IMG/VR virus record: IMGVR_UViG_2703718673_000012
Strand: one strand, 5' to 3'
DNA length: 7,172 nucleotides
Origin: a virus
Taxonomy: Duplodnaviria; Heunggongvirae; Uroviricota; Caudoviricetes
Shown here one piece after another: positions 1-5,877 of this stretch. Each line of letters opens with the position of its first letter. Position 1 is the first letter of the stretch. The translations under genes and the position numbers were made by a program. The notes beneath the pieces were generated by a model that was given only the letters and a program-made list of their open reading frames with translations, made no database searches and was not told the origin of the DNA.

Positions 1-452
1 ATATTGAGTTTGGATTCTGGCTGGATTCGGCAGCGAGCGACAAAAATGCTCTGTGCGCTCACTGGCTAACTGAGGCCGACGACGCGCTCAATTCTGAGTG
101 GGTAAGCCACGGTGCAATCTGGAATAACCCACCGTACAGCAATATCAGGCCGTGGGTGGAAAAAGCCGCTGAGCAGTGCATACAACAGCGACAGACGGTA
201 GTTATGCTTGTGCCAGAGGATATGTCAGTCGGATGGTTCAGCAAGGCTCTGGAGAGTGTTGACGAAGTTCGCATCATCACTGATGGACGGATTAATTTTA
301 TCGAACCATCGACAGGGCTGGAGAAGAAGGGAAACAGCAAAGGCTCCATGCTGCTGATTTGGCGACCGTTCATCAGTCCTCGACGAATGTTTACTACTGT
401 ATCCAAAGCGGCATTGATGGCGATCGGGCAGGGCGTCAGGAGGGCGGCATGA
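1..452 (+). CDS. Phage-type DNA N6-adenine methyltransferase (Dam family), 5' end outside the window
   Basis: Frame beginning at position 3 is open from the window edge to TGA 450-452. NPPY catalytic motif (AIWNNPPYS) is encoded at 126-137, followed by a GRINFIEP...GSMLLIW block typical of small phage Dam proteins. The first in-frame start in the window (GTG 156) lies after NPPY, so the true start must be upstream of position 1. Confidence 0.8.
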
Positions 453-3176: not shown

Positions 3177-3582
3177 TATCCGGCAGGTTCTTGAGCGCTG
3201 GGGGGCATGGGCGGCAAATAACTATGAGGATGTTACATGGTCGCCCATTGCTGCCGGATTTAAGGGACTGATCCCCGAAAAAGTAAAATCACGTCCACAG
3301 TGCTGTGACGATGATGCGATGGTGATATGCGGGTGCATAGCCCGCCTTTACCGGAACAATCGCGATCTGCATGACTTGCTGGTTGATTATTACGTGTTGG
3401 GGGAGACGTTCATGGCGTTGGCACGGAAACATGGGTGCTCTGACACNNNNNNNNNNNNNNNNNNNNNNNNNNNNNNNNNNNNNNNNNNNNNNNNNNNNNN
3501 NNNNNNCATGATAAGAGTGGTTACATTGCCACGCAGTCGAACCCGCCGATGCGCGGGTTTTTTTGTACCCCGAATCCTGTGA
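3169..3582 (+). CDS. Q: Late-gene antiterminator Q (933W-type allele inferred from context), interrupted by a 60-nt N run
   Basis: ATG 3169 overlaps the ninH 3' end. N-terminal 92 aa ([34 protein letters not shown]...[20 protein letters not shown]...) match my recollection of Stx2-phage Q. Position between ninH and the tR'/tRNA/stx2 module is as expected. The frame stays open across 3447-3506 (60 N, a multiple of 3) to TGA 3580-3582, but the C-terminus cannot be verified. GTG 3130 is an alternative in-frame start. Confidence 0.7.
3447..3506. other. Run of 60 ambiguous bases (N): assembly gap or masked segment inside Q
   Basis: Literal N characters at 3447-3506. Confidence 0.99.
3541..3564 (+). 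terminator. Terminator-like hairpin plus T7 tract within the 3' end of the apparent Q frame
   Basis: ACCCGC (3541-3546) pairs with GCGGGT (3553-3558) around loop CGATGC, followed by seven T's to 3564. Its relation to the Q C-terminus depends on the true size of the gap. Confidence 0.45.
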
Positions 3583-3599
3583 GCTATACGGAAAGTACA

Positions 3600-3700
3600 C
3601 AGAAAGGAAGGTGCGACCGTAATTAATAACAAAATCTTAAAAATCGCATATAGCACTATTAGTTTTCTAAATATTGTATATTTTAAGTATTGCAGGATAA
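3600..3700 (+). promoter_or_regulatory. Approximate late promoter pR' and Q-utilisation region (exact -35/-10 not resolved)
   Basis: AT-rich segment between Q and the tR' terminator. It holds several -10-like hexamers (TATATT 3677-3682, TAGTTT 3660-3665) but no clean -35/-10 pair. Placement rests on lambdoid gene order, not on a clear motif. Confidence 0.35.
3688..3698. repeat. Direct repeat copy 1 (TATTGCAGGAT)
   Basis: Exact 11-mer also present at 3896-3906; 13 of 14 bases match when extended (GTATTGCAGGATAA versus ATATTGCAGGATTA). Confidence 0.7.
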
Positions 3701-3744
3701 CCCTGTAACGAAGTTTGCGTAACAGCATTTTGCTCTACGAGTTT

Positions 3745-3773
3745 GCCAGCCTCCCCCAGTGGCTGGCTTTTTT
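3745..3773 (+). terminator. Rho-independent terminator consistent with tR' (end of the short pR' leader RNA)
   Basis: Stem GCCAGCC (3745-3751), loop TCCCCCAGT, stem GGCTGGC (3761-3767), then TTTTTT (3768-3773). Confidence 0.8.
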
Positions 3774-3781
3774 ATGTCCGT

Positions 3782-3895
3782 AGCGTCAAAGCAGCAATGG
3801 CGCTAGGGCGTCGTGCAATTGGCGTTGAGCTGGAGAGCGGGCGTTTTGAGCAGACGGTCAGGGAAGTTCAGAATGTAGTCAGTCAGAACGGATGA
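3782..3895 (+). pseudogene. Relic of the 3' end of a DNA amino-methyltransferase gene (C-terminal AdoMet-binding region only)
   Basis: Frame encodes ...RVSKAAMALGRRAIGVELESGRFEQTVREVQNVVSQNG then TGA 3893-3895. LGRRxIGxExE followed by an aromatic residue is the conserved C-terminal signature of beta-class N6/N4 DNA methyltransferases (usually preceded by GSGTT, which is absent here). No methyltransferase-like sequence in any frame upstream of 3780. Confidence 0.5.
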
Positions 3896-3906
3896 TATTG
3901 CAGGAT
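3896..3906. repeat. Direct repeat copy 2 (TATTGCAGGAT) with downstream inverted partner
   Basis: Exact copy of 3688-3698. GCAGGAT (3900-3906) is also the reverse complement of ATCCTGC (3925-3931), giving a 7-bp stem and 18-nt loop just upstream of the first tRNA. Confidence 0.7.
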
Positions 3907-3935
3907 TAGTTACGTACCGTTATTATCCTGCGCCC

Positions 3936-4011
3936 GGCCCTTTAGCTCAGTGGTGAGAGCGAGCGACTCATAATCGCCAGGTCGCTGGTTCAAATCCAGC
4001 AAGGGCCACCA
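3936..4011 (+). tRNA. ileZ: tRNA with CAU anticodon (tRNA-Ile2 lysidine type or Met; ileZ of Stx phages)
   Basis: Hand-folded cloverleaf: acceptor GGCCCTT/AAGGGCC, D-stem GCTC/GAGC, anticodon stem AGCGA/TCGCC with loop CTCATAA (anticodon CAT at 3969-3971), T-stem GCTGG/CCAGC with loop TTCAAAT, discriminator A, encoded CCA 4009-4011. Confidence 0.9.
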
Positions 4012-4020
4012 TATCACATA

Positions 4021-4097
4021 CCGCCATTAGCTCATCGGGACAGAGCGCCAGCCTTCGAAGCTGGCTGCGCGGGGTTCGAGTCCTCGATGGCGGTCCA
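4021..4097 (+). tRNA. argN: tRNA-Arg (anticodon UCG)
   Basis: Acceptor CCGCCAT/ATGGCGG, D-stem GCTC/GAGC, anticodon stem CCAGC/GCTGG with loop CTTCGAA (anticodon TCG at 4055-4057), T-stem CGGGG/CCTCG with loop TTCGAGT, encoded CCA 4095-4097. Name assigned by position in the known ileZ-argN-argO array. Confidence 0.85.
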
Positions 4098-4110
4098 TTA
4101 TCTGCATTAT

Positions 4111-4187
4111 GCGTTGTTAGCTCAGCCGGACAGAGCAATTGCCTTCTGAGCAATCGGTCACTGGTTCGAATCCAGTACAACGCGCCA
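4111..4187 (+). tRNA. argO: tRNA-Arg (anticodon UCU, reads rare AGA/AGG)
   Basis: Acceptor GCGTTGT/ACAACGC, D-stem GCTC/GAGC, anticodon stem ATTGC/GCAAT with loop CTTCTGA (anticodon TCT at 4145-4147), T-stem ACTGG/CCAGT with loop TTCGAAT, encoded CCA 4185-4187. Confidence 0.85.
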
Positions 4188-5518: not shown

Positions 5519-5765
5519 GGCATAACCTGATTCGTGGTATGTGGGTAACAAGTGTAATCTGTGTCACAATTCAGTCAGTTGACAGTTGCCTGTCAGACTG
5601 AGCATTTGTTAAAAAAATTTCGCATGGTGAATCCCCCTGTGTGGAGGGGCGACTGGTGAAAAATCCTTGCTTGTGATTCATTATCGACACGGGTTCGGTG
5701 GTACCAGGCCGAACTCACCGGGAGGCACCCGGCACCATGCAGTATACAGAGATTAGGCATATACC

Positions 5766-5792
5766 AAGGCCTCTCATAGCAGGGGCCTTTTT
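5766..5792 (+). terminator. Rho-independent terminator about 250 nt downstream of stx2B
   Basis: Stem AAGGCC (5766-5771) pairs with GGCCTT (5784-5789), extendable by three inner pairs, followed by T-run 5788-5792. Confidence 0.65.
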
Positions 5793-5798
5793 ACATGT

Positions 5799-5822
5799 AA
5801 AAAAGCCCGAGTGGGTTCGGGC
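5799..5822 (-). terminator. Terminator-like hairpin oriented for the minus strand (convergent with the preceding one)
   Basis: A-run 5799-5804 then stem GCCCGA (5805-5810) / TCGGGC (5817-5822); on the minus strand this is a hairpin followed by a U-tract. Together with the previous hairpin it flanks the perfect palindrome TTTTTACATGTAAAAA (5788-5803). Confidence 0.45.
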
Positions 5823-5877
5823 AATTGCATGAGATACTCGTTTTAATAATCGAAATCATTTTAACCAGGATTCATAA

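Follow-up and report, generated by a model that had tools for sequence, protein, structure and literature searches.

The analysed DNA, called the window here, is a stretch of 7,172 nucleotides from a virus of the Caudoviricetes (IMG/VR record IMGVR_UViG_2703718673_000012), and it covers the region of a 933W-type Stx2a phage that governs late regulation. Over the stretch compared, positions 3785-3935, it is identical to phage 933W. The features, in the order of the strand given, are the following.

1-452: 3' end of a phage Dam-type methyltransferase gene (PF05869, E 2e-54; TIGR01712)
403-429, plus strand: segment of this dam (PF05869) 3' end that had been likened to the relic (local alignment score 22, chance level)
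Between the dam 3' end and the pR'-tR' leader: Roi/Ant-like genes, ninG, ninH and Q
3447-3506: masked block of 60 N, under which lie the last part of Q and the greater part of pR'
3743-3779, plus strand: intrinsic terminator tR', hairpin GCCAGCC...GGCTGGC with a T-run
3783-3784, plus strand: recombination junction, the two letters GC, with Stx1-phage tR' modules matching on the left and intact methyltransferase genes on the right
3785-3895, plus strand: methyltransferase relic, a pseudogene fragment (93.4% nucleotide identity, tblastn E 2e-14, PGAP pseudogene)
3898-3926, plus strand: pT, a putative sigma-70 tRNA promoter (TTGCAG, 17-nt spacer, TATTAT; annotated in AF125520)
3936-4187, plus strand: tRNA array ileZ (CAU), argN (UCG) and argO (UCU) (ARAGORN, Rfam and record annotations)
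3' of the tRNA array: stx2A, stx2B and then the start of a nanS-p esterase gene

The positions of pT and tR' follow the annotation of the 933W record (AF125520) together with published transcription-start and Term-seq data. The pR' of that record maps to about 3482-3509 of the window, its terminator feature tR' (20929-20957) to 3745-3773, and its feature "pT; putative tRNA promoter" (21082-21110) to 3898-3926. A generic consensus promoter scan did not list pT, whose -35 hexamer matches at three of six positions, and tR' was not picked up by the generic scan, since its loop is above the limit of the scan. A second terminator-like hairpin (3539-3560, GAACCCGCC...GCGGGTT with a T-run) lies well 5' of tR', about 20-45 nt 3' of the presumed start of pR'; AF125520 records it as a possible terminator.

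The tR' hairpin forms the 3' end of the small RNA StxS, as located by Term-seq (PMC7547250), and is the final functional element of the Q933-pR'-tR' module; the StxS end adjoins the relic directly on its left. On the other side, the TTGCAG of pT starts 3 nt past the stop codon of the relic, and a GC-rich discriminator and then the first tRNA follow. A primary transcription start for the tRNAs was reported between tR' and stx2AB, and the same study mentions a "downstream ORF" in Stx2a phage (PMC7547250), which is presumably the relic ORF.

The frame that closes at TGA 3893-3895 belongs to an ORF at 3743-3895, and its product ends in ...SVKAAMALGRRAIGVELESGRFEQTVREVQNVVSQNG. The original prediction had read this end as the C-terminus of a beta-class DNA methyltransferase with no upstream catalytic part in any frame. 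Judged by its own sequence, the relic peptide is weakly methyltransferase-like and is not classifiable with confidence. The Pfam N6_N4_Mtase profile aligned to it over profile positions 197-220/221 (the last 24) with 13.0 bits and E 0.099, short of the gathering cut-off of 26.7 bits; a search of the peptide against NCBIfam gave no match, and a search against the PDB gave no methyltransferase, the sole hit being an unrelated protein (E 0.73). The profile search that had been proposed as a check was thus sub-threshold (E 0.1), and homology was established by comparison with the intact gene in neighbouring phages.

That comparison bore out both parts of the reading. In tblastn, the 352-residue methyltransferase of phage Stx2_14040 aligned to the window over residues 316-352 at 3782-3892, with 30 of 37 residues identical (81%, E 2e-14). 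The rest of the gene is absent from the window: the runner-up of the six-frame search had E 0.14 and was noise inside stx2A. At the DNA level, positions 3785-3935 are 93.4% identical over 151 bp to the end of the Stx2_14040 "DNA methylase" gene, a match that comprises the last 111 nt of the gene and the 40-nt spacer ahead of the first tRNA, which is the pT region. The relic at 3785-3895 corresponds to nt 949-1059 of the 1059-nt gene, that is, the final 36 codons and the TGA. Homology begins at 3785 and not at 3782, since the codon 3782-3784 is the junction.

The relic starts two residues past the FxGxG AdoMet loop (FFMGSGST|VKAAM, with the V at 3785), and it retains only the helix and strand that follow this loop. 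The suggestion of a conserved C-terminal AdoMet-binding signature therefore holds in part: the peptide is a beta-class C-terminus, but the FxGxG loop itself is missing from the relic. Both tblastn and alignment show that the window lacks the catalytic motif DPPY, the target-recognition domain and also the FxGxG loop, and for this reason the relic cannot be an enzyme. It is very probably an inactive 3' remnant of a beta-class N6-adenine DNA methyltransferase gene of the M.EcoGII family.

The intact gene is present at the same site in related phages and prophages. In the Stx2a phage Stx2_14040 it is 1059 nt long and encodes 352 residues; Q and a small ORF precede it, and the same three tRNAs come immediately after it, then stx2AB. 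We also found it at this site in Stx2c phages, in phiP27 (L24) and in a stx-negative prophage of a UPEC (urinary isolate), and each intact copy examined is followed by the same tRNA array, with stx2 as well in the Stx2 phages. An intact homologue next to Q in related phages, including stx-negative ones, had been anticipated, and it was found together with the same tRNA array. The spacer between the stop codon and the first tRNA (3896-3935) shows no difference between the window and either Stx2_14040 or MS10860. A near-full-length copy of the gene is carried by 1917 of 5426 complete E. coli genomes (~35%), and the tR'-relic junction occurs in 542 complete E. coli genomes. Between Q and the M.EcoGII-type gene, the MS10860 prophage has two terminator-like hairpins (2561-2576 and 2889-2906 of that locus) and an ORF of 65 residues; the phiP27 counterpart of this ORF is annotated as a TrmB-family regulator.

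The intact protein matches PF01555 with E 7e-44, carries DPPY at residues 35-38 and FFMGSGST at residues 309-316, and has M.RsrI, CcrM and M.MboIIA among its nearest solved relatives; it is clearly a beta-class enzyme. Over their full length, the intact proteins are 93% (Stx2_14040) and 95% (MS10860) identical to M.EcoGII, and the relic agrees with the M.EcoGII C-terminus at 28 of 34 residues (82% amino-acid identity); the M.EcoGII reference was taken from Supplementary Table S1 of PMC11551740, as machine-converted PDF text with a few conversion errors. M.EcoGII and M.EcoGI, which are encoded by prophages of E. coli O104:H4, methylate adenine at N6 without sequence specificity (Murray et al. 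2018, PMC5778455); the intact homologues of the relic are likewise prophage-borne. The same paper names phage 1720a-02 as encoding an enzyme very similar to M.EcoGII (PMC5778455), and the 1720a-02 gene shares 97% DNA identity with the intact homologue used here. Non-specific adenine methylation is documented for M.EcoGII only (PMC5778455), and from the relic, which is without a catalytic domain, methylation activity would not be expected.

The relic can be compared with its known relatives at several levels. Of the full M.EcoGII enzyme, the window holds only residues ~317-352. The phiP27 L24 "DNA methyltransferase" and the "DNA methylase" of Q21/QO111-type Stx2 phages are of the same family and stand after Q and before the ileZ/arg tRNAs and stx2, and they are full length, whereas 933W-type phages retain the last 111 nt only. 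A methylase gene between q and the tRNAs has been described in 45-kb Stx2a phages and as absent from 61-kb q933 phages (PMC8456039; PMC3491183 Fig. 5), and the 111-nt remnant of the q933 phages is mentioned in neither paper. Against the beta-class PF01555 enzymes M.RsrI, CcrM and M.MboIIA, the relic covers the final 24 positions of the profile, and both defining motifs are missing from it. Sequence identity and conserved position both place the relic by descent in the M.EcoGII family; as a functional PF01555 member it lacks motif IV (D/S)PP(Y/F) and motif I FxGxG, and it does not reach the Pfam gathering score. The MT-A70-family enzyme described in a paper on a prophage rRNA methyltransferase (PMC10810198) is a different gene located elsewhere in the phage and has no bearing on the relic.

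The left end of the relic is a sharp breakpoint. When positions 3700-3935 were searched by megablast in collections of phage and of E. coli genomes, Stx1 phages matched positions 1-83 of the query only (window 3700-3782), and phages and prophages with the intact gene matched positions 86-236 only (window 3785-3935). In the alignment, the relic loci read ...GGCTGGCTTTTTTATGTCCGTA-GC-GTCAAAGCAGC... and the intact genes ...GGGTTCGACA-GTCAAAGCAGC..., common from 3785 on, while the Stx1 phages are the same through GTCCGTA (3782) and diverge beyond it. A breakpoint with a different phage lineage on each side is what a remnant of module exchange would leave. It falls at 3782/3785 and coincides with the end of the tR' module, in agreement with the proposal that the methyltransferase gene was truncated when the pR'/tR' leader was joined.

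The junction is identical in all seven relic loci compared, namely 933W, Stx2 phage I, PA5, E2863, O104:H4, O145:H28 RM12761 and RM9975, where it reads ...TTTTTTATGTC(C/T)GTAGC|GTCAAAGC.... The A at 3796 is specific to the relic, being present in all seven loci and replaced by G in five of five intact alleles examined; among the matches listed, homology to the intact gene sets in at nt 949 in every record that carries the relic only. Because the junctions are identical, the relic may well have had a single origin. The homology immediately left of the break, where the tR' hairpin and T-run face the motif-I coding region and both contain TTTTT(T/C)ATG, was not significant (shuffle fraction 0.31-0.58), which points to an illegitimate join and not to a homologous one. 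None of the 327 records (327 places) searched held both a 933W-type tR' and the intact gene in one phage, which fits a replacement of the upstream segment by the Q933-pR'-tR' module. Alternatively, the sequence between the two may have been deleted via an unsampled intermediate.

The junction is also carried into several module contexts. In RM9975 the same tR'-relic junction stands behind a differently annotated "antitermination protein" gene, and in RM12761 (O145:H28) it stands behind a hypothetical gene on the opposite strand, with divergence 5' of ~3700 and no stx downstream. The prophage of E. coli E2863 (NZ_AP018802.1) represents a stx-negative 933W-like late region: Q933, tR' and the relic are present, and the three tRNAs are followed by a SASA-family esterase gene in place of stx.

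The relic exists in at least two forms. Between the 933W-type and the O104:H4-type there are eight differences in 3700-3935, and all of them lie within the relic (3785-3895), at positions 3800, 3805, 3837, 3838, 3840, 3841, 3872 and 3875. They mostly change amino acids (A/S, S/T, G/E, N/D, V/L). Six of the eight O104:H4 variants are states found in at least two of five intact alleles, and a seventh (3841) is found in one. Both relic alleles, with RM9975 also compared, share the junction and A3796. This pattern of variation suggests that intact copies in other prophages exchange sequence with the relic (gene conversion), or that constraint is relaxed; divergence confined to the relic could reflect such exchange and not simple decay. 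Because all eight differences lie in the relic and most match states of intact alleles, we considered whether the relic serves as a short homology anchor for exchange with co-resident intact M.EcoGII-type genes and/or as required upstream context of pT, a reading that we regard as unlikely. If true, exchange would bring the high-expression Q933-pR'-tR' module beside new tRNA-stx cassettes.

Whether the relic is kept for a role in cis, as upstream context of pT (a zone for an UP element or activator site) or as a 5' leader for tRNA processing from the late transcript, can be judged from its surroundings. The interval from about -38 to -150 of pT falls in the relic, the -35 hexamer being 3 nt past the stop; phages with the intact gene have the same arrangement of this sequence and pT, and the reported transcription start of the tRNAs lies between tR' and stx2AB. 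However, the -40 to -60 zone (~3874-3896) is not A/T-rich, unlike an UP element, and no other part of 3700-3935 varies as much among phage alleles as the relic does. RNA structure prediction for 3777-3935 was unremarkable (z-score -1.9), and no Rfam family matched there. A cis role is accordingly quite improbable, and we infer that the relic has none. It is very unlikely, moreover, that the relic is a functional small gene whose product of 50 residues (TTG 3743) or 32 residues (ATG 3797) would act, for example, as a peptide interfering with dimeric M.EcoGII-type enzymes of co-resident prophages. Beta-class methyltransferases do function as dimers (PMC7544214), a CDS labelled "putative DNA methylase" stands here in several phage entries of GenBank (50 residues long in some), and the frame is open, with no stop or indel, in both alleles and in every allele examined, which over 111 nt says little. 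Yet the TTG start lies within the tR' hairpin, no Shine-Dalgarno sequence precedes either this TTG or the in-frame ATG 3797, and the first 14 residues of the 50-residue ORF are terminator sequence and not methyltransferase. The predominance of amino-acid-changing differences between alleles and the PGAP call as a pseudogene also speak against a small gene.

The original prediction had further pointed to a resemblance between the relic and the 3' end of dam, as a possible sign of past recombination between the two methyltransferase genes. The alignment exists: 403-429 and 3786-3808 agree at 19 of 26 columns, one gap of 3 nt included, and with a score of 22 this is the top plus-strand match in the window. 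However, 70% of dinucleotide-shuffled windows reach a score of at least 22, with a mean maximum of 22.5, and the reverse strand scores 21. A blastn search of the intact gene against the window, run up to E 10, produced no hit within dam. The proteins fall into separate Pfam families (PF05869 for dam, PF01555 for the methyltransferase); they show a weak alignment at (N/D)PPY (E 0.088) and no similarity at the C-terminus, and the real junction partner of the relic is the tR' module, not dam. We rejected the resemblance as evidence of homology; it is a coincidence at chance level, and a relationship through recombination is extremely improbable.

The preferred account, then, is that of an inactive remnant left by a module fusion. 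The ancestral order, as seen in related lambdoid prophages, would have been Q, one or more terminators, a small wHTH ORF, the methyltransferase of 352 residues, pT, ileZ-argN-argO and finally stx2 or another cargo. One event in the 933W lineage, either an illegitimate recombination or the replacement of a module, would have fused the right end of Q933-pR'-tR', which H-19B and other Stx1 phages also carry, to the methyltransferase gene at codon 317. This fusion would have deleted the catalytic DPPY, the target-recognition domain and the FxGxG loop for AdoMet. The tRNA-stx2 cargo had been thought to be joined in the same event. For the tR' module this stands, but the 3' end of the methyltransferase gene, pT, the tRNAs and stx2 are already contiguous in phages with the intact gene, and the event therefore consists of the module being joined inside the methyltransferase gene. 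Today the remnant would be without enzymatic function, a spacer between tR' and pT that is transcribed as part of the late, Q-antiterminated RNA. Its persistence is most likely explained by its being short, neutral and placed between selected elements, tR'/StxS on one side and pT with the tRNAs on the other.

Read in this way, the relic would be the scar that marks where the Q933-pR'-tR' late-control module was joined to a methyltransferase-tRNA-stx2 segment, and a handy marker for the origin of high-toxin 933W-type Stx2a phages from phages with a full M.EcoGII-type methyltransferase. The 933W-type phages would have lost a non-specific adenine methyltransferase and kept a separate Dam-type enzyme (window 1-452). 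The relic matters little alone, and the understanding of Stx phage biology is unchanged.

At the level of annotation the relic is already known. PGAP records a pseudogene "site-specific DNA-methyltransferase" or "DNA methylase", "incomplete; missing N-terminus", at exactly 3782-3895 in E. coli E2863, O104:H4 2011C-3493, O145:H28 RM12761 and RM9975. This annotation mentions no M.EcoGII family and no join to the tR' module, and we found no published account of the relic junction or of the link to M.EcoGII; these two points are small increments.

Several known RNA elements were also seen in the window. The first tRNA (3936-4011) was called Met (anticodon CAT) by ARAGORN and is ileZ, a tRNA-Ile reading AUA, in the records, the usual ambiguity for a lysidine-modified tRNA-Ile2. 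Just 5' of an ant/KilAC-like ORF (906-1583), Rfam identified a P1/P7-type c4 antisense immunity set on the plus strand (655-852), consisting of c4-a1b1 (655-707), isrK (668-742) and the C4 antisense RNA (768-852); such sets are already familiar from Stx and Gifsy-type prophages. At the other end of the window, 3' of stx2B, Rfam placed the STnc100 sRNA at 5593-5798 on the plus strand (208 bits) and the anti-sRNA AsxR at 5800-5852 on the minus strand, both already known.
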